From: Bacteroidota bacterium
GTDB lineage: Bacteria > Bacteroidota > Rhodothermia > Rhodothermales > UBA10348
Direction of reading: 5' to 3'
NCBI GenBank assembly: GCA_029262775.1
Contig: JAJCYR010000091.1
Location: forward strand, 26,080-90,079
DNA: 64,000 bases
This document shows positions 25,071-37,741 of the stretch, piece after piece; position 1 is the stretch's first letter, and every line of letters begins with the position of its first letter. Under the pieces are notes generated by a model. The model was not told the origin of the DNA. It saw only the letters and a list, made by a program, of their open reading frames with translations, and did not search any database. The translations under genes were made by a program, and so were the position numbers.

Positions 25071-25577
25071 ATGTTTTACCCCAAGACCACCATTGCCATG
25101 GTGCTTCTTGCGGGTATTCTCGGATACCGCGCCCTGCCACGACCCGTGGCCGAAGCGTGGATCCTGGACCCCTCTGCCCGTGTGCTCGCACACGCGAACA
25201 GGACCGTACAGCACACGCGTTGGGCGTGGCTCGAATACCGGGCTGGCAGCGGCGATGCATGTGCGCTCGTCATGACGGGCCTCCAGCAGCTGTCTCCCCC
25301 GCCTCCCGATCTGTTTTTAGGCAGGTTCATCGCGCGCCGCGTTGAACAACGTCCGGAACGGGCGCGCCTCGCCGACCCGGTGTGGCTCACAGGCGTGGAC
25401 CGCTCACCAGCCGCTGGCCTCAAGCGCATTCGGCGCGGTCTGAGTAGGAACCATGCACATACAGGCGCAGCGGGCGCCACCGCGGCAGACGCGCCTATAG
25501 ATTCTGCGGCATGTTCGGGCGTGGCCATCCCGGATTGGGTCCTCGCGGCCGCCAAAGGCGACGTACCCTTGCCATAA
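25071..25577 (+). CDS. Hypothetical exported protein
   Basis: Hydrophobic N-terminus from ATG 25071; fills an otherwise empty gap; no recognised family. Confidence 0.4.
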   Translation: MFYPKTTIAMVLLAGILGYRALPRPVAEAWILDPSARVLAHANRTVQHTRWAWLEYRAGSGDACALVMTGLQQLSPPPPDLFLGRFIARRVEQRPERARLADPVWLTGVDRSPAAGLKRIRRGLSRNHAHTGAAGATAADAPIDSAACSGVAIPDWVLAAAKGDVPLP

Positions 25578-25654
25578 CATGGAAGGCCACTGCCGGGCAG
25601 GTATTCCTGCGGCTGCCGTATACTCGGGTTTCACCACCACCCCGAGCCTCACCC

Positions 25655-28600
25655 ATGTACCCGATTCTCCGAGAGCGTGCACGCGCGGCATGCGGCGTGC
25701 TCGCAGCCGTTCTGCAGCCTCTCAGCGCCTGTCTCCTGTCCACTGCCTGCCTCCTCGCCCTTGCCCTTGCCACCAACCCGGCGCACGCCCAGGTCGACAC
25801 GCCCCCCGACCTGCCGTCTGTCAACGTCGCCGAGGCCCCCTCCATCCGCATGGATAACCTGGACTTGACCGATGGCATAGGTCAAGGCACGATATACCAG
25901 ATCACGCAGGATAGCAAGGGCTTTCTCTGGTTCGGGACCCAGGGAGGGCTGCACCGCTACGACGGGCACGAATTCAAGATTTACGAACCTGTCGCCTTCG
26001 ACACCACCTCTATCGGAAACGGGTGGGTGTGGGGCGTCAATGAATCGAAAGATGGCAGCATGTGGGCGGCTACTCTGACGGGATTGTCTCGTCTCGACCC
26101 TGAAACCGGGCATTTTGAGAATTTTGTCCACGATCCGGCCGATTCCACAAGTTTGGCATCCGGCATCGTGTTCGCCAGCCTCGAGGCCAGCGACGGCACC
26201 ATATGGGTGGCTTCCGACGACGGTCTGAGCCGACTGGATGCGGCGCGCACCGGTGTATTCGAGCGGTTCGAGCCCGTGGCTGGCGATTCCACCAGCCTCC
26301 CGGGATCCAGCTATTTCTTCCTGCGCGAAGGTCCTGACGGTACCATCTGGGTCAGCACGGACGACGGGCTCGCTGGCGTGAACCCGGCGACAGGCGCTAT
26401 CCGCCGGTATTTCTCGACCGGCCAGGTGCAGGGTAATTCCGCGCCGCAGGTGGTCTATGGAAGCGCGTCGGATGCTCGCGACGAACAGTTTTTCTGGTAC
26501 GGACTGGGCCGAGGGCTTATGCGTTTTGACTCTCACACGGGCGAACGCACCGTTTGGGTCCCGTATCCCGATGAACCCCTTTTCAGTGAATTGAACGTGG
26601 TTTTGACCATCACAAACGATCCACTCAGCGACGACGTCCTGTGGATCGGCACAAGCGGAGGTGGACTTCTTCGCTTCGACACCGTATCGAAAACGTTCAG
26701 CACATACAACCATGACCCGGAGGACCCGAATTCGATCGCGTCGGATATGGCGAATACGGTGTTTGCCGACCACTCTGGCACGGTCTGGGTCGGCTACGGC
26801 AACAAGGGGCTGGGCAAGTTCAATCCGACATCCGTCAGTATAGCCCACATTCGGAACGATCCTGAAAACGCCGACACACCCGTAGCCGATGGGAGTATCT
26901 GGGCCATGCTCGAAGCACGTGGCAACCTCTGGACGGGCGTCTCATCGAATGCCGGCAAGCATATCCTTACGCGCTACCATCTCTCGTCGGGAGAAGCCCG
27001 GCGCATCACGGCTGACCCAAATAACGACTTGACCTTTTGGCCGGGCACCATCCAATCTCTCATGGTTTCTGAATCCGGACAACTGTGGGTGGGGACATCG
27101 GGCGTCAGTGCATGCAACCCGGCAACGTTGATCTGCCGCCGCCTGCCGCGCTCCCGTACCGATTCTACGCAAATCGACGGGAGCTCCGTTCATGCGCTCT
27201 TCGAGGCGGCTGACGAGCCCGGTACCATCTGGGTCGGCAATTTTGGAGGGCTGCACCGCTTGGATGCCACAACGGGCACGGTGCGCCGCTTTGCTACGCC
27301 CACGCTGGACCCGGCGCTCACCATGATACCGGCGCATATCATTCTTGGCAGTGACGGGGCGCTCTGGATATCTACTCTCGGATCCGGGATCTCCCGGTTC
27401 GAGCGCGAGGCGGAAACGTTCGAACACTATCCGTACAATGTCCGCGACACGACAACGATCGCCAACAACCACGCGGAAGTCATCCTCGAGCGCGCCGTCG
27501 AGCCGGGCATTCTGTGGGTTGGCACGATGGGGGGCCTGGATCGTTTCAACATGAATACGCGCACGGTGGAGCGCCATTTCAATGAGCAGGCGGGGCTTGC
27601 CAACAATCACATCTATGGCATGCTGGAAGATAATAATGGCATGCTTTGGATCACGTCCAACCGGGGTGTTTCCATGTTCAATCCCGACACGGGGGCTTTC
27701 CGGAACTACGGTACCGAGGATGGTTTGCGCGAGTTGGAGTTCATGCAGAATGCGTTCACGAAAGGGAGCGGCGGCATGCTCTACTTCGGGGATGTGCGTG
27801 GCATCACGGCTTTCGTACCGGAGCGATTGACCACCAACGGCGTAGCTCCCCCGGTCGCCTTCACGGCGCTCCGCGTGAATGGCGAGGAGCAGGAACTGGT
27901 TGCTGCACTCGAGATCCCGTACGCCCGGAACAGTTTTTCTGTAGATTTTGTGGCACTGCATTTCACGAATCCGACCCGAAACACGTTCTCCTATCAGTTG
28001 GAGGGGTATAGTGACGACTGGGTGAACGCCGGTACGCAGCGCACGGCCGCCTATACGAACCTCCCACCCGGAGAGTATACACTGCGCGTCAAAGCAGCCA
28101 ATTCCGACGGCATATGGAATACTACCGGCATTTCCATGGATGTCTCGGTGCTTCCCCCATGGTACCGCTCAGCGTGGGGGTATCTGCTTTTTGCGGCACT
28201 TCTGATTGGTATCGTTGCCGGGGGCGCGCGCGTGCAGCACGCGCGTGTCGTAAAGCGCGAACGCACCCGCTCGGAAATCAAAGAAATCGGGCTTCGGGCC
28301 GAGGCGGCCGAGTCAGAAGCCAAGGCCCTGCAGGCAGAGAATGCGCGCCGCAGGAATATTGAGCGGCTGTCCGAAATTGGCAAGGAAATTACGTCATCAC
28401 TCGATTTTGAAACGATTTTCGGTCGGCTCTACATGCATGTAAATGAACTCACCAACGCTCCCATTTTTGGCGTAGGCATTTACAATGAGAAAGAAGCCCT
28501 GCTCGACTACCGCATGGCCATCGAGGACGGCAAACGCTATGCTCCCTACACACGCGATATGCGCGACGTGAACCAGTTTCCGGTCTGGTGTATTTCGCAT

Positions 28601-29683
28601 CGCGAGCCAGTCTTCATCAACGACATCGAGAGCGAGTACAGCAAATACCTCGATTCGCTCGAGACCACGAGTGGCACGCTTGAAGACGGATCGGTGAGCC
28701 GCCAGCCGCTATCGCTGATTTACCTGCCGCTGACGACACAGGACCGCGTCCTGGGCGTCATCACGGTTCAGAGCTTCAAGCGGAATGCATACACGGAAGA
28801 CGACTTGAACCTACTCAAAACCATGGCGGCCTATGCATCGGTCGCGCTCGACAACGCGAACGCCTACCGGCAATTGAATACGACCGTCGAGGAGCTCAAA
28901 CAGACCCAGCAGCAATTGGTGCAGCAGGAAAAAATGGCATCTCTTGGGCAGCTCACGGCGGGTATTGCCCACGAGATCAAGAATCCGCTCAATTTTGTGA
29001 CGAACTTCGCCGACGTGAACGCCGAGTTGGCATCGGAACTCAGGGAGCTTTTCGACGCCAACGATGGGGAGCGTCTGGCGAGCGTGCGCGCCGAGATCGA
29101 GGACCTGGTGTCCGGGCTGCATCTCAACGCCAAGCAGATTTCCAAGCATGGAAAACGAGCCGATTCCATTGTGCGGGGCATGATGGAGCATGCCCGTCAG
29201 GGCGATTCAGAGCGGTTCGATGTGTCCATCAACGGATTCGTGGAGGAGTACGTGAACCTGGCCTGGCATGGCTACCGCGCCCGCTTCCAGGACCTGCAGG
29301 TGGACGTCAATACGTCGTTTGGCCAGGAGGTTGAAAACGCCCGGATATCCCCGCAGGATATGGGACGCGTGCTGATCAACCTCGTGGGAAACGCGCTCGA
29401 TGTCGTTCGCCCGCTCAAGAACGGAATGCTGTCGGTCGCGACGCGGCGTCTCGATGATCACGTGGAAATACGGGTCTCCGACAACGGACCGGGCGTCCCG
29501 GAGCACCTTCGAAGCCGAATATTCGAGCCTTTTTTCACGACGAAGCCTACGGGCGAAGGAACAGGGCTCGGGCTGAGCATGTCTCATGAGATTGTCACAC
29601 AGGGCCACGGCGGCACGTTGACGCTCGAAGACACGCCCGGCGGTGGCGCCACATTCGTGATTACGCTTCCCCTTTCCGGTTGA
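25655..29683 (+). CDS. Sensor histidine kinase: Reg_prop beta-propellers, Y_Y_Y, TM, GAF, HisKA, HATPase_c
   Basis: QDSKGFLWFGTQGGL repeats, YTNLPPGEY, PPWY, GAF, EKMASLGQLTAGIAHEIKNPLN, DNGPG...FFTTK..GEGTGLGL. Confidence 0.93.
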   Translation: MYPILRERARAACGVLAAVLQPLSACLLSTACLLALALATNPAHAQVDTPPDLPSVNVAEAPSIRMDNLDLTDGIGQGTIYQITQDSKGFLWFGTQGGLHRYDGHEFKIYEPVAFDTTSIGNGWVWGVNESKDGSMWAATLTGLSRLDPETGHFENFVHDPADSTSLASGIVFASLEASDGTIWVASDDGLSRLDAARTGVFERFEPVAGDSTSLPGSSYFFLREGPDGTIWVSTDDGLAGVNPATGAIRRYFSTGQVQGNSAPQVVYGSASDARDEQFFWYGLGRGLMRFDSHTGERTVWVPYPDEPLFSELNVVLTITNDPLSDDVLWIGTSGGGLLRFDTVSKTFSTYNHDPEDPNSIASDMANTVFADHSGTVWVGYGNKGLGKFNPTSVSIAHIRNDPENADTPVADGSIWAMLEARGNLWTGVSSNAGKHILTRYHLSSGEARRITADPNNDLTFWPGTIQSLMVSESGQLWVGTSGVSACNPATLICRRLPRSRTDSTQIDGSSVHALFEAADEPGTIWVGNFGGLHRLDATTGTVRRFATPTLDPALTMIPAHIILGSDGALWISTLGSGISRFEREAETFEHYPYNVRDTTTIANNHAEVILERAVEPGILWVGTMGGLDRFNMNTRTVERHFNEQAGLANNHIYGMLEDNNGMLWITSNRGVSMFNPDTGAFRNYGTEDGLRELEFMQNAFTKGSGGMLYFGDVRGITAFVPERLTTNGVAPPVAFTALRVNGEEQELVAALEIPYARNSFSVDFVALHFTNPTRNTFSYQLEGYSDDWVNAGTQRTAAYTNLPPGEYTLRVKAANSDGIWNTTGISMDVSVLPPWYRSAWGYLLFAALLIGIVAGGARVQHARVVKRERTRSEIKEIGLRAEAAESEAKALQAENARRRNIERLSEIGKEITSSLDFETIFGRLYMHVNELTNAPIFGVGIYNEKEALLDYRMAIEDGKRYAPYTRDMRDVNQFPVWCISHREPVFINDIESEYSKYLDSLETTSGTLEDGSVSRQPLSLIYLPLTTQDRVLGVITVQSFKRNAYTEDDLNLLKTMAAYASVALDNANAYRQLNTTVEELKQTQQQLVQQEKMASLGQLTAGIAHEIKNPLNFVTNFADVNAELASELRELFDANDGERLASVRAEIEDLVSGLHLNAKQISKHGKRADSIVRGMMEHARQGDSERFDVSINGFVEEYVNLAWHGYRARFQDLQVDVNTSFGQEVENARISPQDMGRVLINLVGNALDVVRPLKNGMLSVATRRLDDHVEIRVSDNGPGVPEHLRSRIFEPFFTTKPTGEGTGLGLSMSHEIVTQGHGGTLTLEDTPGGGATFVITLPLSG

Positions 29684-30146
29684 GACCGCTCCGGATGGCG
29701 TCAGCGGACTGGATACGTGGCCACACGGCGCGGACGAGCACCCCGATGCCCGCCATCTGAAGCGCCATTCCGGCCACTCGGAAACCATTCAGGAGCTCGT
29801 CCGCGCCGGGCTCTCCTGCCACAAGCGGTGCGGCGGCAACGACGACGACACCCAGATTGAGCGCCGCCGTGGCCGAGAGGAGGATCGCTTTCCCCAGTCC
29901 TGCGCGTCGCCGGTTCCGCGGAAGGATCCAGAGTGCTACGCCGAGCGCGAGTTGGATCATAAAGCCCGTCAGCATGATCCAGGCATGGGAGGGGCGAAGC
30001 ATCCAGATGCCGCTCCAGTCGCCGCCGGAAAGCCAGTTGCCACTGGCCAGACCGGAGCGCTCGAAGAGCATGGCTACTCCGAGCAGTACGCCGGTCATGA
30101 ACCACAGGAGTGCGCATCGCACAAGCAAAACACTATGCTGTGGCAT
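29661..30146 (-). CDS. Small 4-TM heme-copper-oxidase-homology membrane protein
   Basis: HAWIMLTGFMIQLALGVALWILPR motif; paralog of the adjacent gene; in the nirK operon. Confidence 0.7.
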   Translation of the reverse strand: MPQHSVLLVRCALLWFMTGVLLGVAMLFERSGLASGNWLSGGDWSGIWMLRPSHAWIMLTGFMIQLALGVALWILPRNRRRAGLGKAILLSATAALNLGVVVVAAAPLVAGEPGADELLNGFRVAGMALQMAGIGVLVRAVWPRIQSADAIRSGLNRKGEA

Positions 30147-30158
30147 GGCGGGAAGGCG

Positions 30159-30530
30159 TTATCTGCGGGTTTTGACGCGGCTCCAGAAGTAGACGACCAG
30201 CAGCGCTGCGGCGGTTGCCTGAAGTAGCGATGAGGCCACGAGCAGACTTCCCCAGGGGTCGATGTGGGCCCGAGGCTCAGACGGAATGCGCAGTATAAGC
30301 CCGGCGTTGAGAAGCCCCCAGGCCGCACCCACCAAGTGGTGATGGCCGTAGGGAGATTCCTTCGAGTACCGCGGGAACAGCCAGTAGGCCACGCCGAAAA
30401 TGAGCTGGGTCAGCCATCCGACCGTGAGCACGTGGAATACGGCCGGATGGGACCAGAAGACGCCCATGACAAGACCGGCGAACAGGTGAATGAACGCGGT
30501 TTTGATGAAGAGCCTGCTCAGGAGCGGCAT
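30159..30530 (-). CDS. Small 4-TM heme-copper-oxidase-homology membrane protein
   Basis: HVLTVGWLTQLIFGVAYWLFPR motif; directly downstream of nirK. Confidence 0.75.
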   Translation of the reverse strand: MPLLSRLFIKTAFIHLFAGLVMGVFWSHPAVFHVLTVGWLTQLIFGVAYWLFPRYSKESPYGHHHLVGAAWGLLNAGLILRIPSEPRAHIDPWGSLLVASSLLQATAAALLVVYFWSRVKTRR

Positions 30531-30558
30531 GACGTGCGGGGGTAATGCGTGGGCCTGG

Positions 30559-31968
30559 TCAGTGCTCGCTACGGGCCTTGCTCACGTCCATCGGGCTGAT
30601 CTCGGGACCGTCATTACCCCACGAGTTCAGAACGAAGGTCACAACGGCAGCCACTTCAGCGTCCGAGAGGCGCACGGCCGGCATGACGCCGTTGTAGGTC
30701 TCGCCGTTAACGACAATCTCTCCGGAGAGCCCATGTACGACGGCATTCACGGCCCGAAAAGGGTCGTCAAGAAGGTAGTCTGAGCCTGCGAGTGGTGGGA
30801 ACGAACCCCGAAGCCCCTGACCATCCGGCTGATGACAGGCGGCGCAGTTCGATGTGAAAATACGTGCTCCGGCCACCATCGGGTCTTCGATTTCGGCGTC
30901 GGGCGCCTCGGTCAACGGAACATTCTGGATGCCACCACCTTCGGGCAGGTAGACCGTCTCCTCCTGCAGCCCGGAGTAGATGGCCTCGTTCTCTTCCCCC
31001 GCAACCACGAGGCTGCCGAGCGCCCCCTTGTTGAAGGCGCGGAAAATGGCATGGTCCACCAGGATCAGGTTGCCCGGCACATCTACGCCGAACTCTACTA
31101 TGGCTGCGCCGCCGGCAGGCACGAGCGTCGTCTGGACGTTGTGCTGTGAGACGAGCGTGCCACCCTCCTGGTAGACGTTGTCGAAAATTTCCCCAATCAC
31201 GTGGAACGAGGAGATAAGGTTGGGACCACCGTTGCCCACGAACAGGCGTACGGTTTCCCCCACGTTGGCAGCGAGCGCATGCTCGCCCGCGAGTGCGCCG
31301 ACCGCGCCGTTGAAAACCACATAATCGGCATCTTCCTCAATGGCTTTGCCCATGTCGAACGGCTGCAGGCCCGGATCGCCGTAGTCGCCCCTCGTGTAGA
31401 ACTCGCTCTGCATTACATAATACTCACGGTCCACAGCAGGCAGCCCTTCTTTGGGCTCGACCAGAATGAGCCCATACATGCCGTTGGATATGTGCATACC
31501 GACAGGAGCCGTGGCGCAGTGGTACACAAATAGGCCCGGGTTGAGCGCGGTGAAGGAGAACGTGGTACCCGTCCCGGGAGCCGTGAACGATGCGGCAGCT
31601 CCCCCACCGGGACCCGTAACCGCATGCAGGTCAATGTTATGCGGCATTTTGCTGGTTGGGTGGTTGTTCAGGTGAAATTCGACCAGATCTCCTTCGCGTA
31701 CGCGGATGAACGATCCCGGCACATCGCCACCGAAGGTCCAGAACTCATATTCGACGCCATCGGAGAGTCGTCCTTTTTTTTCGACGGTTTCCAGTTCCAC
31801 TATCACCTTGGTGGGGTAATCCCGCGTAAGGGGCGGCGGAACGTTTGGTGCAGCGGTCAGGACGGCCTTTTCCTCGCCCTGGATGGTATTGGGCGCACAA
31901 TTCAGGTTGACGAGTGAGGCCGACACAAGACACAGGATAGGCAGGGATGGGCGCAGGAGAGCAGACAT
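30559..31968 (-). CDS. nirK: Copper-containing nitrite reductase with C-terminal cytochrome c domain
   Basis: [45 protein letters not shown]; C-terminal CAACH...GVMP. Confidence 0.95.
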
Positions 31969-31981
31969 GGTAGGCGGGTAC

Positions 31982-32021
31982 GTGGTGGAGTGGTGGAGTG
32001 GTGGAGTGGTAGAGTGGTAGA
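31982..32021. repeat. 8-bp tandem repeat (GTGGTGGA / GTGGTAGA x~5) upstream of nirK
   Basis: gtggtgga gtggtgga gtggtgga gtggtaga gtggtaga. Confidence 0.8.
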
Positions 32022-32114
32022 CGCCAAGTCTACACCATGGCACAGCGCACGTGCAAGAAACCAAATAATATTATCTCGTTTGCCGGTCCGAAATCCATTT
32101 TTCGCATGAATTAT

Positions 32115-32137
32115 ATAAAGACTTAATACTCTTTTGT
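32115..32137. promoter_or_regulatory. Candidate NO-responsive (Rrf2-type) operator in the nirK/eNOR divergent promoter
   Basis: ATAAAGACTTAATACTCTTTTGT, imperfect palindrome in AT-rich DNA; 16/23 identical to the motif upstream of ric. Confidence 0.55.
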
Positions 32138-32189
32138 ATATAATACAGATGGATCCCTGCTCAACGCCGACATCAACCCACATACACCC

Positions 32190-32348
32190 ATGTCTGAACC
32201 CTTTGAATCGCCGGAAAACGAACGCCCCTGGCAGGTCGAGCTCTTTGACAGTATCTGGCTCCTTGCCGGCGCGGCCATCGTGTTCTTCGTGCTCTCCTAC
32301 ATCGTGTGGGGGCTCGTCGATATTCTCACTATCCCTACTGGAGGTTGA
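32190..32348 (+). CDS. 52-aa single-TM protein, probable small subunit of the heme-copper enzyme
   Basis: MSEPFESPENERPWQVELFDSIWLLAGAAIVFFVLSYIVWGLVDILTIPTGG; stop 2 bp before the subunit II ATG; not in the ORF track. Confidence 0.75.
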   Translation: MSEPFESPENERPWQVELFDSIWLLAGAAIVFFVLSYIVWGLVDILTIPTGG

Positions 32349-32350
32349 TC

Positions 32351-32890
32351 ATGAGCTCACCACTTCACTCCCCCCAGGGCAACTGGTGGATTGCAGGCGT
32401 ATCGGTGCTCGAAAAGACCTGGATCCGGATCAGTGTTGTCTGGTGCCTTCTCCTGTTCGCATCCATGATCGTGTGGGCCTCCTATGGCAAGCAGAACCAG
32501 GCCGGACCGACCTACCGCGTCTCCACGGCCGAGTTCATGCAGAAGGTGCAGGATTTCAAGAAGGCCGGTACGCAGACGGAAGACGGTATCATCCCTGCCG
32601 ACGAGCATGTATATGTAGCGGCGGCACGATTTTCGTTCGACGGATTTCCTGTCGTACTCGAAGCCGGAAAGCAGTACCAGGTGCACATGAGCAGCTATGA
32701 TGTACAGCACGGACTCTCCATCCGGCCCGAACATGCGCTCAGCAAGCAGATGTCGCTTCAACTCCTGCCCGATTACGAATGGGTCCTGCCCATGAAGTTC
32801 GACGAACCGGGCGTGTATCACGTGGTCTGCAACGAATTCTGTGGTGTCGGCCATCGGACCATGCACGGCTCATTCATCGTGCGGAGGTAA
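32351..32890 (+). CDS. CuA-containing heme-copper oxidoreductase subunit II
   Basis: One TM, DVQHG and CNEFCGVGHRTM CuA ligands; GGAGG RBS before ATG 32351. Confidence 0.92.
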   Translation: MSSPLHSPQGNWWIAGVSVLEKTWIRISVVWCLLLFASMIVWASYGKQNQAGPTYRVSTAEFMQKVQDFKKAGTQTEDGIIPADEHVYVAAARFSFDGFPVVLEAGKQYQVHMSSYDVQHGLSIRPEHALSKQMSLQLLPDYEWVLPMKFDEPGVYHVVCNEFCGVGHRTMHGSFIVRR

Positions 32891-32893
32891 CCC

Positions 32894-34600
32894 ATGATCA
32901 AAGAACTGTTTACCAACGACTACGGGCCTGACGGATTTCGCACCTGCTCCGTGACGGGCATGAAAATTGACCGCACGGCCGAGAACTTCGTCAAGATATT
33001 CGGCCTGACGGCCGTTGTCGCCCTCGTACTGGGAGGGCTTTCCGCGATCCTTGTCGTGCTGACCCGCTGGGAAGTGGTCGGACTGCTGCAGCCCGCCTCC
33101 TTCTACAATTGGCTCAGCGTGCACGCATGGAATCTGCTCATCTTCTGGATGGTCTTCATGGAAGTGGCCATCCTGTATGTGGGCGGTCCTATGGTGCTGG
33201 GACGCAGGTTACCCGCTCCAAAGCTCGCCTTGATCGGTTATGTGCTCATGCTCGGCTCGGCCGTTGCAATCAACTGGGCCATCATGACGACGTCGGCCCC
33301 GGATCATGCGCCCGTCCTGACATCGTATGCGCCACTGCCGTCCTCTGAATGGTTTTATCTCGGCGTCATTGTCTTCATTCTGGGTACGGTGATTGCAGCC
33401 CTGCCCTTCTTTGTCGCCATTTGGCAGGAAAAAATCCAGCATCCGAACAAAAGTCTACCACTCGTTGCGTTTGGCGCCTTCATTACGGCCATCATCGCCG
33501 TGGAGGCACTCCTGGGTGGATTGATCACCTACGTTCCGACGTATATGTGGCGGATTGGTCTGCTCGAGCACATCGATGCCGCCTGGTACCGACAGATGTA
33601 TTGGATCATTGGTCATGGAACCCAGCAGATCAATCTTGCCGCGATGATCACGGTATGGTACTTCCTGACCCACGTGGTGGGCGGCGCCGAGGTGGTGAGT
33701 GAGAAAGTCTCGCGCTCCGCCTTCATTCTGTATCTCTTCTTCATCAACATGGGCGCCGCACACCACCTCATGGCCGACCCCGCGCTTGCCGCCAGTTGGA
33801 AGGTGTGGAATACGTCCTACGCGGTCTATGGCGCCGTGCTGGCAAGCATGATCCATGCGTTCGCCATTCCAGCCGGTCTTGAAGCAGGTCGCCGCAAGCG
33901 GGGTGCCGGTAAGAGCCTGTTCGGATGGCTATGGTCGGCACCCTGGAGCAACCCGGTGTTCTCGGCCGTCATCTTCTCCATCGTGCTGTTTGGCTTCATG
34001 GGAGGCATTACGGGGGTTCTGATGGGTCAAATGCAGCTCAACCTGGCCTGGCACAACACGTGGGCCACGGTGGGCCACTTCCATGCCACGGTCGTGCTTG
34101 GAACCACCATGACGTTCATGGGGCTGGTGTTTTTTGTCATCCAGACCATGTTCAAGAAGGAGCTGATCCTGGCACCCCTCGCCCGTATCCAGCCCTGGTT
34201 CTATTCCGGATTCATGGCACTGGCCACACTCATGATGATGTACCTCGGAATCCTGTACGGCATTCCGCGGCGTCATCCGTCGGTCATGAACATCCCGGGC
34301 ACGGACTTCAACTTCGCGGCTGCGGAGCCTCTTTTCGTAATATTCGGTATTGCGGCGCTGTTGGCTATCGTTGGGGGCATCCTGTTCGCCGTTATCTCCG
34401 TCGGATCGCTGCTCTTCGGTCGGAAACTCGAACCATCGACCGTATTCAGACCGCTCCATTCCTGGCACGGTGACGGAAACCCCGTACACCTGCAGTCCAT
34501 GCGAGGCACATTCATGTTCACACTCATTTTCCTGGCCGTGTTCGTGATTGCCTACATACTGAACTGGTACCTGCTGTCGCGTCTGTGGGAAATCGGGTAA
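32894..34600 (+). CDS. Heme-copper superfamily subunit I, B-family-derived nitric oxide reductase (eNOR-type)
   Basis: Six His ligands (SVHAW, GHGTQQ, AHHL, GHFHA), GIPRR; Gln at the H+4 cross-link Tyr position; divergent from nirK. Confidence 0.85.
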   Translation: MIKELFTNDYGPDGFRTCSVTGMKIDRTAENFVKIFGLTAVVALVLGGLSAILVVLTRWEVVGLLQPASFYNWLSVHAWNLLIFWMVFMEVAILYVGGPMVLGRRLPAPKLALIGYVLMLGSAVAINWAIMTTSAPDHAPVLTSYAPLPSSEWFYLGVIVFILGTVIAALPFFVAIWQEKIQHPNKSLPLVAFGAFITAIIAVEALLGGLITYVPTYMWRIGLLEHIDAAWYRQMYWIIGHGTQQINLAAMITVWYFLTHVVGGAEVVSEKVSRSAFILYLFFINMGAAHHLMADPALAASWKVWNTSYAVYGAVLASMIHAFAIPAGLEAGRRKRGAGKSLFGWLWSAPWSNPVFSAVIFSIVLFGFMGGITGVLMGQMQLNLAWHNTWATVGHFHATVVLGTTMTFMGLVFFVIQTMFKKELILAPLARIQPWFYSGFMALATLMMMYLGILYGIPRRHPSVMNIPGTDFNFAAAEPLFVIFGIAALLAIVGGILFAVISVGSLLFGRKLEPSTVFRPLHSWHGDGNPVHLQSMRGTFMFTLIFLAVFVIAYILNWYLLSRLWEIG

Positions 34601-34607
34601 CAACAGA

Positions 34608-35372
34608 ATGACGTTCATTGAGCAGTCCATGCATATTGAACGCTCGGTCGACCGACCCCGAAACAAACCTCGCCACCAGCCAGGCCAGCGAAAGAAACAC
34701 GGGGCCCTGAAATCCCTGTGGCTGGCCTACAAGGCCCTCTACTACGCCAGCACGCCATCCTGGCGGTTCATGAAAAGCGGAGCCCTTTTTCTGTTCGGGT
34801 TCTTCTGTTGGTCAGCAGGCAACCTCCTGCTATCCTATGAGCCCTCATGGACGTGGGTCCAGTTCATTGCAGCGTATGGCTTTCTGGTCATCATTTGGGG
34901 TCCCACTACGCATTTGCTGCTCGTCCCCATTGTGACGCCATACATGAGACGATGCTTCGATTCGAACCCCGGGAAATGGTTGGCCAAACACCTCTCGCTG
35001 GTCAATTTCCTTGTGTTCATGGTGCATGTCATTCTGTTCGGGTTGTATCCACCCGAGCATGTGCTCTTCGAATTTGGCACGATTGCGAGCAGTAATCCCG
35101 AGGTCGATGTCAACCCCACACTCGATTGCGGCAGGAACCGGGACGCCGCGCGCCTGACCTGCACGGTGAGTCCCGGGGACGGGATAGGACGGCTGGAAAT
35201 TGAAACAGCCGGAAAGCCGCTCAGTCGCCTCGATGAGGCACCGTGGACGTTCACGCTGCGGGAACAGGACCTGGCGCGCGTGGTCGGACAACAACAGTTC
35301 GAAGTGCTGGTCATGACACCCGGCGGCAACGTGATCCGCAGTTACACCAAATACGTGGCGACCATTCCCTGA
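34608..35372 (+). CDS. Hypothetical membrane protein (3 TM plus soluble C-terminal domain) in the eNOR operon
   Basis: 7 bp after subunit I; YYASTPSWRFMKSGALFLFGFF segment; stop overlaps the next start. Confidence 0.7.
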   Translation: MTFIEQSMHIERSVDRPRNKPRHQPGQRKKHGALKSLWLAYKALYYASTPSWRFMKSGALFLFGFFCWSAGNLLLSYEPSWTWVQFIAAYGFLVIIWGPTTHLLLVPIVTPYMRRCFDSNPGKWLAKHLSLVNFLVFMVHVILFGLYPPEHVLFEFGTIASSNPEVDVNPTLDCGRNRDAARLTCTVSPGDGIGRLEIETAGKPLSRLDEAPWTFTLREQDLARVVGQQQFEVLVMTPGGNVIRSYTKYVATIP

Positions 35373-36595
35373 TGTACACCGTCGAAAAACGCGTGTGGAT
35401 GGGGGCCATCGCGTGTTTCATCCTGGCCGCCGGAACCGGATTCTTTTTCCGCAGCATACAGTTTCTGGGCATTCCAGCCGAGTTTCCGTGGCCGGGAGGA
35501 GCCGTACCACTCGACATGGGCCACATCCGGCACGCACATACCCACGTCATGTACTTCGGGTGGGTGACGCCCGTTGTCATGCTCCTCATGCTCCCTGAAC
35601 CGGCGAGGTACGGCCGCCACATCATGGTGCTTCTGGTACTGGCCGTGCTGGCCTGGGCACCCTTCCTGCTGCTGGGCTACAAGCCCCTCTCTATCGTGCT
35701 TTCGACTTCCACCATGCTGACCTGGTACGCATTCGGTATCCGGTACCTGCGGGACCGCTGGCGTGGGAAATTGTCGCCACAAGGTGGGCCATCGACCGCG
35801 GAAGACGCTGGCGGCATTCCTCGCCGCGACGTCCGCCACATGCACGACGCCGCCCTGATGCTGCTCATCGTCGCATCAATGGGTGCATGGGGCCTCGGAA
35901 TGACCATGGCGATGGGGCTGGACCACTCGCTGGCGTACGAGCTTTCGCTGCACGTTTTCCTGGATTTATTCGCCGAGGGGTGGCTCATGCTGAGCGTCCT
36001 GGCGGCCATGCTCCGCTCGGCCCACCGGTCCATTCCCCGGCATGCCTTCTGGCTTCTTGTGGCCGGTATTCCCACGCTTTTCCTACTGGGGGTTGCGCCC
36101 GAACGCCTTCCGTGGGCTCTTCGGCTGGTGGGTAGTTTGGGAGCGCTCCTTACGGTGGCTGGACTGTGGCTCGTCCTGCGGACGGTTCGTACGCGACTGC
36201 ACCGGGTATGGACATTGCCGGTGACGCTCATGTACGTAAAAATTGTCGTACACGTGGGACTCGCCATTCCTCAGATCGCATCGTGGGGCCTGACGGCCGG
36301 ACTCCGCATTCCATGGCTCCACCTGGTGCTACTCGGAATTGTCACAACGGGCCTCGTGGCCGCGGTGCACGACCGCTTCGGCAGCAGATGGACACGCGGC
36401 TGGCCCACCTTGCAGATCTCGATCATACTCGTCCTCATGAGCCTCTTCCTACTGACCGGGCTCTGGCCCGAGAGCCTGCGGGGGACCTGGGCAGGCCCTG
36501 TCGTTGCCGGGATTGCCCTGCTTCCACTCATTGCCATGACCCGTATGCTGGTAGCCACACTTTGTCTCCCAACTACGCCACCCCACAGGTGTTGA
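35372..36595 (+). CDS. ~12-TM heme-copper-oxidase-homology (NnrS-like) membrane protein
   Basis: Three His repeats: HAHTHVMYFGW, HVFLDLFAEGW, HLVLLG; TGATG translational coupling. Confidence 0.65.
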   Translation: MYTVEKRVWMGAIACFILAAGTGFFFRSIQFLGIPAEFPWPGGAVPLDMGHIRHAHTHVMYFGWVTPVVMLLMLPEPARYGRHIMVLLVLAVLAWAPFLLLGYKPLSIVLSTSTMLTWYAFGIRYLRDRWRGKLSPQGGPSTAEDAGGIPRRDVRHMHDAALMLLIVASMGAWGLGMTMAMGLDHSLAYELSLHVFLDLFAEGWLMLSVLAAMLRSAHRSIPRHAFWLLVAGIPTLFLLGVAPERLPWALRLVGSLGALLTVAGLWLVLRTVRTRLHRVWTLPVTLMYVKIVVHVGLAIPQIASWGLTAGLRIPWLHLVLLGIVTTGLVAAVHDRFGSRWTRGWPTLQISIILVLMSLFLLTGLWPESLRGTWAGPVVAGIALLPLIAMTRMLVATLCLPTTPPHRC

Positions 36596-36699: not shown

Positions 36700-36999
36700 C
36701 AGGAGCAGATGCTGGAAAGCCTGACTACTTTTCTCAGCCATTCATTCCTGCACGCCGCCGATCAGGGCATTGAGACCCACCACCACCCCAATGAAACCGG
36801 CATCGTGGACGTGCCCAATCAGAACGGACACGACCGCTGCCGCTGCCAGGATGTAAATGAGTGGGCTTCGGAGCTGCCGGAGCCCGACCTGCCACCATGA
36901 GGGCAGCGGTTTTTCCGGGAGCACGTTGGGGCCATGGAGCGCGAGCAGTGTGCGTGCTTCCGCGCTTGTCAGGCCGTCGTGCACAGCATCATTGGGCAA
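36700..36999 (-). pseudogene. N-terminal remnant of a cation-transporting P-type ATPase
   Basis: GLTSAEA...HGPNVLPE...RQLRSPLIYILAAA...LNALIGGVQE*MAEKSSQAF; in-frame TGA and the rest of the gene missing. Confidence 0.8.
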
Positions 37000-37741
37000 G
37001 GAAGCCACCATCCACTGGGTAGTAGGATCCGGTCACAAAACTGGCTTCGGGAGACGTAAGCCAGTAGACCAGTTCAGCGACTTCGTGGGGCTTGCCCAGC
37101 CGTCCCACGGCGTGCAGCCCGGTCAGCATCTGATGCATGTCTGGATCGTTCTCGAAGTCCGAAATCATGGGCGTGCTTATGAACGCAGGACCCACCGAGT
37201 TGACCCTGATACCTTGTTCGCCGTATTCGAGGGCCGTCGCTTTGGTCAGCCCGACGACGCCGTGCTTGGCCGCCGTATAGGCCGGGGCTCCGGCAAACCC
37301 AACCGCGCCCAGGATGGACGCCATGTTGACAATCGATCCACCGCCGCTTCGGAGCATGGCAGGAATCTGATACTTCATGCCGTAGAAGACACCTGACAGG
37401 TTGATGGCAATGACGTCGTTCCAGGCATCTACCGGATACTCCGCCGTCGGATGCAGCTCGCCTCCGATTCCGGCGTTGTTGCACGCCATATCCAGTCGTC
37501 CAAAGTGCGTCAGTGCCTCCTCCACAGTCCGCTCGCAGTCTTCGGGCCTCGACACGTCGGCCTTCACGAACACCGCCTCCCCGCCGCTTATGCGCAGCGC
37601 TTCGGCCAGCGATTCACCAGCCTTTTCATTCACGTCGCTCAGCACGACGGCCGAGCAGCGCGATACGTACAGTTCAGCAATGGCGCGTCCAATTCCGGAT
37701 GCGGCGCCAGTAACCAAGGCAACTCTTCGTTCGGTGTTCAT
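36989..37741 (-). CDS. SDR family NAD(P)-dependent oxidoreductase
   Basis: TGAASGIG, NNAG, YTAAK, IRVNSVGP, VDGG. Confidence 0.95.
   Translation of the reverse strand: MNTERRVALVTGAASGIGRAIAELYVSRCSAVVLSDVNEKAGESLAEALRISGGEAVFVKADVSRPEDCERTVEEALTHFGRLDMACNNAGIGGELHPTAEYPVDAWNDVIAINLSGVFYGMKYQIPAMLRSGGGSIVNMASILGAVGFAGAPAYTAAKHGVVGLTKATALEYGEQGIRVNSVGPAFISTPMISDFENDPDMHQMLTGLHAVGRLGKPHEVAELVYWLTSPEASFVTGSYYPVDGGFLAQ

Follow-up and report, generated by a model that had tools for sequence, protein, structure and literature searches.

Probable recruitment of NnrS-like haem membrane proteins into the two operons of a divergent NirK-eNOR module in Rhodothermales

Do the uncharacterised proteins encoded next to a nitrite reductase and a nitric oxide (NO) reductase in a Rhodothermales genome form one undescribed apparatus, or were they added to the denitrification genes separately? 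The question is raised by a divergent gene cluster at positions 29661 to 36595 of a 64,000-nucleotide stretch of DNA from a Bacteroidota bacterium (assembly GCA_029262775.1), which was analysed as a whole and is called the window in the following. One of its operons encodes the nitrite reductase NirK fused to a cytochrome c, and the other encodes an NO reductase of the eNOR type. The extra genes of both operons are three independent layers of separate add-ons, not one new machine. The genes s52 and p254 are intrinsic to the eNOR operon (the first layer); tm12, with an oxidase fold that appears to lack the catalytic centre, stems from a large family for which Pfam and NCBIfam have no model (the second layer); and hcoB and hcoA encode paralogous four-helix "one-third oxidase" proteins (the third layer). 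We infer that the tm12 protein and HcoB/HcoA may be NO-responsive, haem-carrying proteins whose task is to bind, buffer or sense NO in the membrane, and that in this genus tm12 would have been recruited into the eNOR operon and the hcoB-hcoA pair into the nirK operon. The reading as a whole, a NirK-eNOR module whose two denitrification operons have taken up NnrS-like haem proteins that handle NO, is the one that we regard as probable, with moderate confidence.

The elements of the module are arranged as follows (ORF, open reading frame; HCO, haem-copper oxidase):

29661-30146, minus strand: hcoA, 161 amino acids, four transmembrane helices, HCO-like; the terminal gene of the nirK operon
30159-30530, minus strand: hcoB, 123 amino acids, four transmembrane helices, HCO-like, with the invariant residues H33 and E85
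30559-31968, minus strand: nirK-cytochrome c, likely ATG at 31968; the longest ORF (501 amino acids) reaches 32064
31969-32189, no strand: AT-rich divergent control region with a candidate operator-like site at 32118-32133 (AAGACTTAATACTCTT)
32190-32348, plus strand: s52, 52 amino acids, one helix; opens the eNOR operon
32351-32890, plus strand: eNOR subunit II, a cupredoxin, likely ATG at 32351 (179 amino acids); the ORF (194 amino acids) runs from a GTG at 32306
32894-34600, plus strand: eNOR subunit I, 568 amino acids, with a COX1 match
34608-35372, plus strand: p254, 254 amino acids, three to four helices and a C-terminal immunoglobulin (Ig)-like domain
35372-36595, plus strand: tm12, 407 amino acids, 12 transmembrane helices; the ORF itself begins at 35243

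All eight ORFs were thus found in the window sequence where the initial annotation had placed its divergon, and they are indeed tightly spaced, with intergenic distances of 12, 28, 2, 3, 7 and -1 nt. The last value reflects the sequence TGATG, in which the ATG of tm12 at 35372 and the stop codon of p254 overlap by 1 nt; this ATG was chosen as the start because the resulting 407 amino acids equal the length of the relatives, and ATG 32351 was chosen for subunit II because 179 amino acids match the length of its homologues. The full-length start of hcoA is backed by the N-terminus MPxxS..(V/I)(R/K)xAL, which is shared with hcoB.

Contigs from three sibling samples cover the locus with zero differences; all of them come from one study and may include siblings of the source sample. 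No single sibling contig spans the whole locus, and one links the region upstream of nirK to subunit II. A short tandem repeat at window 31975-32020, with GGTGGAGT-like units, directly precedes the likely nirK start and encodes the HHSTTPP repeats of the over-long nirK ORF; at this repeat the sibling samples stack very short contigs of high depth, and the assemblies break. It should also be noted that the contig from which the window is taken (C91, 233,570 bases; the window is C91:26080-90079) is a perfect palindrome, identical to its own reverse complement. This is a hairpin-type assembly artefact, the true contig being about 116.8 kb long, and the genes of the window, the module included, are therefore counted twice in searches of the whole genome.

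The core of the module could be assigned at the level of known families, in agreement with the initial reading as NirK plus eNOR. NirK passes the equivalog model TIGR02376 (360.2 bits, cut-off 296.3), and its C-terminus (residues 398-482 of the 501-amino-acid ORF) matches Cytochrom_C with 48 bits (cut-off 21.3). Subunit I matches COX1 (PF00115) with 172.5 bits, and its best solved relative is subunit I of the Thermus thermophilus ba3 oxidase (E = 1.4e-35). In the HMMER alignment with the latter the HH and HFH metal and haem ligand motifs are retained, and GHPIVY of ba3 is aligned with GHGTQQ, which puts a Gln at the active-site Tyr position; the cross-linked Tyr was placed with the residue numbering of ba3, which we take to apply here. 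Subunit II remains below the cut-offs of both COX2 (18.8 bits, cut-off 22) and TIGR02866 (34.5 bits, cut-off 147.7), and its translation shows the copper motif C-x-E-x-C-G-x-x-H-x-x-M, presumably that of a CuA site. Over 568 amino acids, subunit I is 71-72% identical to the proteins of two loci titled Rhodothermus sp. (L010, L011), and the same range was found for six genomes of one genus. According to the available text of the study that established the family, the missing cross-linked Tyr is a criterion for recognising new NO reductase (NOR) families, and the eNOR of R. marinus has been proven to reduce NO and not O2 (PMC11214002). Judged by these similarities, the core is a cytochrome-c-fused NirK divergent from an eNOR-type NO reductase and is of a known kind; the eNOR is predicted to be active as a B-family-derived, CuA-containing NO reductase.

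The closest described counterpart is the eNOR of R. marinus together with NirK, which the window resembles in subunit I (by way of the Rhodothermus sp. loci), in the exchange of Tyr for Gln and in the presumed CuA motif of subunit II. The likeness extends to the presence of nirK, nosZ and ctaA in the genome, and to the gene order s52-subunit II-subunit I-p254, which is identical in a Rhodothermus-like genome (G115, eNOR region L140), taken as Rhodothermus by inference from its 72% subunit I identity. In contrast to that counterpart, nirK is here fused to a cytochrome c and divergent to eNOR, the eNOR operon has gained tm12, and the nirK operon has gained hcoB-hcoA; in G115 the genes for NirK, eNOR and HcoB-HcoA are scattered over the genome, and none of the 7 genomes of that genus yielded a tm12 match.

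In the rest of the genome, searches located a clade II, Sec-type nosZ (927.7 bits) at C51:20041-22953, with an Rrf2-family regulator about 700 nt upstream, as well as adjacent ctaA (C56:118658-119224) and ctaB genes. Two further subunit I genes (499 and 400 bits) and no other NOR-like match were present, and eNOR is therefore the only candidate respiratory NOR of this genome. Neither napA nor narG was found at E<=1e-20, which is weak evidence of their absence in a genome that is 94.7% complete with 5.25% contamination. With nosZ, ctaA and ctaB present and napA and narG not found, the predicted pathway of the host leads from nitrite to N2. The earlier suggestion that the host may release nitrous oxide (N2O) unless nosZ lies elsewhere was overturned by the nosZ gene on C51, with which the host is not expected to act as a source of N2O. 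The absence of norB, nosZ and ctaA from the window itself was confirmed, but the accompanying statement that the window holds no regulator was too loose, as a gene for a sensor histidine kinase abuts the module. As a separate observation, another genome (G178, locus L135) has a tm12 homologue in the neighbourhood of an Rrf2 gene and a nos cluster.

Which of the additional genes belong to eNOR? A scan for eNOR that used one genome per species yielded 417 relatives, and the best 80 loci (61-93% identity), among them Rhodothermales, many haloarchaea and Gemmatimonadota, were searched with tblastn for the other genes of the module; some of these loci are short, and the misses include truncated contigs. 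Subunit II was found in 78 loci, s52 in 73, p254 in 65 and nirK in 24, and the remaining genes are nearly missing (hcoB 3, hcoA 2, tm12 1). In all of its 73 loci, which cover Rhodothermales, haloarchaea and Gemmatimonadota, s52 sits just upstream of subunit II, and the order s52-subunit II-subunit I-p254 is conserved in most of the 80 loci, so that the arrangement is more than chance. Thus, s52 and p254 are members of the eNOR operon across bacteria and haloarchaea. Nevertheless, p254 was not found by tblastn in the Gemmatimonadota eNOR loci, nor in a Salinibacter sp. locus (L068, 63% identity).

The conserved position of s52 invites a comparison with subunit IIa of the T. thermophilus ba3 oxidase, which we take to be a tiny single helix encoded together with a one-helix CuA subunit II in a B-family-type enzyme. 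As compared by description, s52 resembles it in being a small single helix and in its position, conserved in 73/80 loci, but differs in its greater length of 52 amino acids; by analogy, s52 may be a small structural helix of the same sort. For p254 the alignment of 41 proteins (A2), comprising the window protein and 40 of the 65 homologues (24 were omitted for size), revealed the invariant residues W38, Y45, W52, K56, H102, C174 and C185; the homologues of L045 and L060 were dropped, having internal stop codons. The AlphaFold2 model of p254, with a predicted local distance difference test score (pLDDT) of 86.8, consists of helices up to about residue 146 followed by a C-terminal beta sandwich. 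Foldseek returned only Ig- and FN3-like domains, a Big_7 Ig domain was matched by 16/41 members of the alignment, and the protein Atlas gave a best score of 0.78 and no usable cluster. The protein would be an eNOR-specific subunit or assembly factor, anchored by its three to four helices and exposing the Ig-like domain beyond the membrane.

A compact haem A synthase had also been considered for p254, an idea suggested by its invariant His and Cys pair and by the UbiA neighbour in a haloarchaeal locus. It was rejected, since 41 relatives gave no PF02628 signal (E<=1) and the Cys pair lies within the Ig-like domain. In the haloarchaeal locus in question, subunit I and the p254 homologue are separated by a gene (L014:11753-12802, plus strand) for a prenyltransferase of the UbiA family, which is a candidate haem O synthase; a TrmB-type regulator lies downstream. 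In a Gemmatimonadota locus (L030) an Rrf2 regulator follows eNOR.

The unequal distribution over the 80 loci bears directly on the proposal of the initial annotation that the four membrane partners work together as one apparatus for assembly, cofactor delivery or NO sensing in the service of NirK and eNOR. Such an apparatus would agree with the tight spacing or translational coupling with nirK and eNOR in the window and in its closest relative (L007), with the presence of hcoB in 13/14 eNOR genomes of the order, and with the recurrence of SCO1/SenC and CopD-like genes in wider neighbourhoods. However, s52 and p254 travel with eNOR, tm12 occurs mostly without it (35/48 tm12 genomes of the order have no eNOR-like gene), and the haloarchaeal eNOR genomes lack hcoB. 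Moreover, the compact divergon is common only to the genome of the window (G000), one further genome (G229) and L007, and in a congener (G231) the genes are split: eNOR-tm12 lies on contig C1, and nirK and hcoB-hcoA lie on contig C14 with 26 kb between them. This split argues that the accessory genes are movable modules and not one fixed machine. The single apparatus is accordingly not borne out, and we consider it very improbable.

For tm12 an oxidase fold is predicted. The AlphaFold2 model has a pLDDT of 92.4 and a predicted template modelling score (pTM) of 0.92, and its top 39 Foldseek matches in the PDB are all HCO subunits I or NorB, led by the cbb3 subunit CcoN (TMq 0.68-0.73). Eleven residues are invariant in alignment A1 (R53, H54, A55, H56, H58, M60, Y61, F62, W64, D198 and H317), and H194 is present in at least 90%. 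With the helix limits of the AlphaFold2 model, the conserved His residues fall near the starts of helix 2 (54, 56 and 58), helix 6 (194) and helix 10 (317), and helix 7 has none. In catalytic HCOs, helices 2, 6 and 10 presumably bear haem and CuB ligands, and the full ligand set of a binuclear centre comprises one His in helix 6, a pair in helix 7 and another two in helix 10. Because tm12 has no helix-7 His pair and one His in helix 10, it would be unable to build a binuclear centre; on the model, helices 2 and 10 could hold a single bis-His haem between them, possibly together with a metal. Compared with the catalytic subunits I CcoN, NorB and ba3, tm12 shares the twelve-helix fold and the His of helices 2, 6 and 10, but it lacks a binuclear centre and is not accompanied by a dedicated partner gene for CuA or cytochrome c.

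The family of tm12 is large. An exhaustive profile search retrieved 1,492 representative clusters at E<=1e-3, of which 1,102 remain at E<=1e-10; a word-indexed search retrieved 71 clusters, all unnamed or hypothetical and with no recorded Pfam domains, and in the protein Atlas tm12 falls into unnamed clusters (best 0.95). One relative carries the name Longibacter salinarum. The window protein has no PF00115 match, and weak matches were seen among its relatives (sub-threshold COX1 in 5/35, DUF2871, PF11070, in 3/35); the profile of the relatives hit PDB sequences only at chance level (E 2.4), and single-sequence hhalign comparisons of hcoA, hcoB and subunit I with the tm12 profile gave nothing informative. 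Like tm12, s52 and p254 have no match in Pfam or NCBIfam, and none of the accessory proteins falls into a family of either database, so that their description as uncharacterised stands. The available text of the eNOR study (PMC11214002) and of its preprint contains no description of s52, p254, tm12 or hcoA/hcoB; figures or supplements may show the neighbourhood or the subunits.

The relation of HcoA and HcoB to oxidases is visible in the sequences. Residues 9-140 of HcoA match positions 7-136 of the COX1 profile (E 1.2e-6) and HcoB matches positions 345-393 (E 5e-3), both below threshold; placed on an oxidase, these regions fall in its first and last thirds, where both low-spin haem ligands are located. 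The two proteins are paralogues (hhalign probability 99.5%, E 2.7e-22) that share the MPxxS N-terminus, four predicted helices and, near the beginning of helix 2, a single invariant His with G(W/F)..QL..GVA.W..P(R/K) after it. The invariant His is H54 in HcoA (alignment A3) and H33 in HcoB, which also has the invariant E85 (alignment A4). For hcoA the family comprises 10 clusters, and for hcoB it comprises 274 clusters at E<=1e-3, many of which have weak precomputed matches to PF00115 and few to PF11070 or PF05940. HcoA and HcoB are like DUF2871 (PF11070) in their size of about 130-140 amino acids and in their four helices, and a few HcoB relatives match it weakly; the window proteins have no PF11070 match at E<=0.1, and titles and abstracts of four of the five papers naming DUF2871 contain nothing on its function.

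Prediction of the HcoA-HcoB complex gave a score of 0.38, which, like all scores up to 0.60, would more often be wrong than right unless the pairing is likely beforehand; the best control scored 0.00, the pLDDT of the partners was at least 81, and the runs agreed in at least 98% of contacts. The mark used in these predictions was reached by 58/80 solved complexes and by 2/110 mismatched pairs. The result lends weak support to the view that the two proteins may pair as a heterodimer. A more far-reaching version would have HcoA provide helices 1-4 and HcoB helices 9-12 of an eight-helix heterodimer that restores nothing of a haem-copper oxidase but its low-spin haem pocket, one His per chain, and would regard tm12 as the fused twelve-helix version, with one His site per four-helix repeat; together they would constitute an undescribed non-catalytic branch of the oxidase superfamily, controlled by Rrf2/NsrR, that binds or buffers NO and replaces NnrS in Bacteroidota, Gemmatimonadota and Chloroflexota. 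We put this forward as a tentative extension, in which our confidence is low.

In two loci, hcoB has a further membrane protein gene directly upstream (followed by hcoB-hcoA in L127), next to genes of the RIC/YtfE type. This polytopic family of 365-415 amino acids is unassigned in Pfam and NCBIfam, has H..(L/F)..(C/V)GF-type motifs reminiscent of NnrS and is not encoded in the window; members are L127:5009-6106 and L133:9567-10766 (both minus strand), and others occur in L125 and L128.

How the accessory genes are distributed was surveyed in 285 genomes of the order, the genome of the window included. Matches to tm12 were found in 48 genomes, to hcoB in 37 and to nirK in 66 (61 above the cut-off); eNOR at >=63% identity was found in 14 genomes. 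Almost all of these 14 contain hcoB (13/14, the lone miss being a metagenome-assembled genome (MAG) of 68% completeness), and nirK is present in 26/48 genomes with tm12 versus 40/237 without it. Among the 37 hcoB genomes, nirK occurs in 24 and tm12 in 21. In the profiling against eNOR and nirK that the initial annotation had called for, s52 and p254 co-occur with eNOR, as does hcoB in bacteria; 6/48 tm12 genomes have eNOR and 13/48 have either of two eNOR-like classes. The second of these classes, at 42-44% identity, was found in 13 genomes of the order. As a side observation on it, subunits I of this class (40-44% identity in 13 Rhodothermales genomes) have the same GH..QQ motif, and one of its loci (L130:3544-10360, genome G112) comprises Rrf2, subunit II, subunit I, SCO1/SenC, a fusion protein and a tm12 homologue.

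The tie between hcoB and eNOR might be explained in another way, namely if HcoB and HcoA, and perhaps tm12 and p254, were maturation factors of eNOR, i.e. chaperones for the insertion of haem As or of FeB/CuA comparable to Surf1, CtaA/CtaB and SenC. Besides the co-occurrence in 13/14 genomes, a tandem hcoB-like pair in 3/5 Gemmatimonadota eNOR genomes, the translational coupling of tm12 to p254 and the haloarchaeal UbiA-family gene between subunit I and p254 are in line with such a role, as is, in the available text of PMC11214002, the use of the unusual haem As by eNOR and the CtaA homologue in many eNOR operons. Yet neither PF02628 (CtaA) nor another assembly-factor family was matched by HcoA/HcoB, tm12 or p254, and 24/37 hcoB genomes lack eNOR at >=63% identity, 20/37 even any eNOR-like gene. 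In addition, tm12 mostly occurs without eNOR, and in the Rhodothermus-like genome hcoB-hcoA (L139) stands with genes for RIC, a ferredoxin and Fe-S assembly, far from eNOR (L140). A role in maturation is in our view unlikely.

The neighbourhoods lead back to the preferred reading of tm12 and HcoB/HcoA as NO-handling haem proteins. In 20 longer regions, which were picked partly for the presence of nirK or hcoB on the same contig and in which neighbour counts are biased, gene calling relied on a GC3 heuristic; the genes were grouped into clusters, and the cluster representatives were scanned with Pfam. The recurrent neighbours of tm12, hcoB and hcoA encode Rrf2 regulators, bacterial-like (truncated) globins, cupredoxins of the plastocyanin/azurin type, SCO1/SenC, an FGE-sulfatase protein (NirV-like), ScdA_N-hemerythrin-DUF2249 proteins (di-iron proteins of the RIC/YtfE type), ferredoxin, an Fe-S assembly protein and CopD-like proteins, and nirK and nos genes recur as well. 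The unbiased count is that for the 30 best tm12 loci, with flanks of only 1.5 kb on each side: any of the listed neighbours was found in 17 loci, Rrf2 in 11, a globin in 8, hcoB in 4, nirK and a cupredoxin in 3 each, and eNOR subunit I in 3, all of the own genus. All accessory proteins are connected to NO metabolism by comparative genomics, and this part of the initial proposal was upheld.

The same neighbourhoods bear on the possibility that tm12 and HcoA/HcoB are membrane b-type cytochromes, which would supply the cytochrome c of NirK or the CuA of eNOR with electrons drawn from the quinol pool or an alternative complex III. The conserved His at the positions of HCO low-spin haem ligands (in tm12 on helices 2 and 10, with the AlphaFold2 helix limits) would suit such a function, as would the COX1 matches of HcoA (positions 7-136) and HcoB (345-393), the recurrent cupredoxin genes and the fusion protein of L130, which consists of 709 amino acids (cytochrome b / 4Fe-4S / FlpD) and is encoded between the eNOR-like operon and tm12. 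However, there is no sign of a quinol site or of a redox partner, the genes most often found right beside tm12 code for a regulator and a globin, both of them typical members of stress regulons, and the many tm12 genomes with no nirK match speak against it as well. Electron transfer is thus an explanation to which we assign little probability.

A shared regulatory signal may be present. The palindrome AAGAC-N6-GTCTT has three unique exact copies in 299 kb of related loci, all of them upstream of tm12, nirK or hcoB, and these extend to TTAAGAC-N6-GTCTTAA. The site at 32118-32133 of the window is one mismatch away from it and is kept, flanks included, in L007; within its 3.2 Mb, the own genome has no exact copy and 47 sites with one mismatch. 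The palindrome is a weak lead and may be a candidate operator of the neighbouring Rrf2 proteins. Searches for sigma-70 promoters (1 versus 2.5 expected) and terminators (4 versus 5.7) yielded nothing above shuffled sequences.

NnrS (PF05940) is a haem- and copper-containing membrane protein with 12 transmembrane helices that belongs to NnrR/NsrR regulons. The tm12 protein resembles it in its length of about 400 amino acids, the 12 helices, the conserved His and an N-terminal motif of the HAH..FG(F/W) type, and furthermore in its position beside nirK, NsrR-type regulators and globins. Canonical NnrS is above the cut-off in 2/285 genomes of the order and in 1/301 sampled genomes of the phylum, and sub-threshold matches to the NnrS model (19-25 bits, cut-off 28) fall on hcoB genes of other genomes. 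The nearest protein Atlas cluster with NnrS, of whose members 33% are annotated, scores tm12 at 0.80. In Proteobacteria, nnrS belongs to NsrR regulons with hmp and dnrN and may form operons with nsrR or hmp, as far as the available text of PMC1274295 describes it. By its context, tm12 may work like NnrS; membership in the NnrS family is not established. The core of the module is already known, and the orphan families would be new within the HCO superfamily and, by context, NnrS-like. The NnrS gene of the phylum-wide search (G251:C8:29368-30501, minus strand; locus L144), which is also one of the order's two canonical NnrS genes, has one in-frame TAG and is a pseudogene or contains a sequencing error.

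Several observations weigh against the preferred reading. No PF05940 match was found for the eight module proteins (E<=0.1) or in the own genome (E<=1), and homology of tm12 and HcoA/HcoB to NnrS is not significant (hhalign E 0.05, probability about 1%, against one NnrS sequence, that of G251, the sole one from the phylum-wide search of 1/301). The hhalign probability between tm12 and HcoA/HcoB is 7-10%, the register being suggestive and not significant. Of the tm12 genomes 22/48 have no nirK match, some of them being incomplete MAGs. The genomes are related, the 14 eNOR genomes belonging to 4 genera, and Fisher p-values thus overstate the case. In the haloarchaeal eNOR genomes hcoB was found in 0/5, one weak match (E 3.5e-4) lying inside a 635-amino-acid ORF; the absence of hcoB from haloarchaea and of p254 from Gemmatimonadota means that neither is essential to eNOR chemistry. 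The bias of the 20 regions, the short flanks of the 30 loci and the weakness of the napA/narG negative point in the same direction.

The distinctions drawn here have consequences beyond this locus. The recently proven NO reductase eNOR may account for much unrecognised N2O production, and sorting its true operon members (s52, p254) from lineage-specific add-ons sharpens annotation and guides purification and structural work. The tm12 and hcoA/hcoB families, the latter being oxidase-fold proteins that lack a catalytic centre, lie in NO-responsive neighbourhoods in phyla whose genomes hardly ever yielded a canonical NnrS. Should they bind haem and NO, they would offer a testable handle on how denitrifiers protect their membranes from their own NO, and would also illustrate how four-helix units can make up the 12-helix oxidase fold.

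Three genes border the module. The sensor histidine kinase mentioned above (window 25511-29683, plus strand; 1390 amino acids with a Reg_prop/Y_Y_Y propeller, GAF, HisKA and HATPase domains) is convergent with hcoA, the 3' end of which it covers over 23 nt; no tie to denitrification was seen, and no dedicated search for one was made. On the other side, tm12 is followed by a short-chain dehydrogenase (SDR) gene (36989-37741, minus strand), the end of which is overlapped by an 89-amino-acid ORF (36742-37011, minus strand) that may be a gene fragment; by sequence alone it looks like the N-terminal part of a cation-transporting P-type ATPase. An SDR gene of L128 (10732-11496) clusters with L137:1381-2097 and with L140:1336-2181, the latter in the eNOR region of the Rhodothermus-like genome G115, which may be a coincidence.

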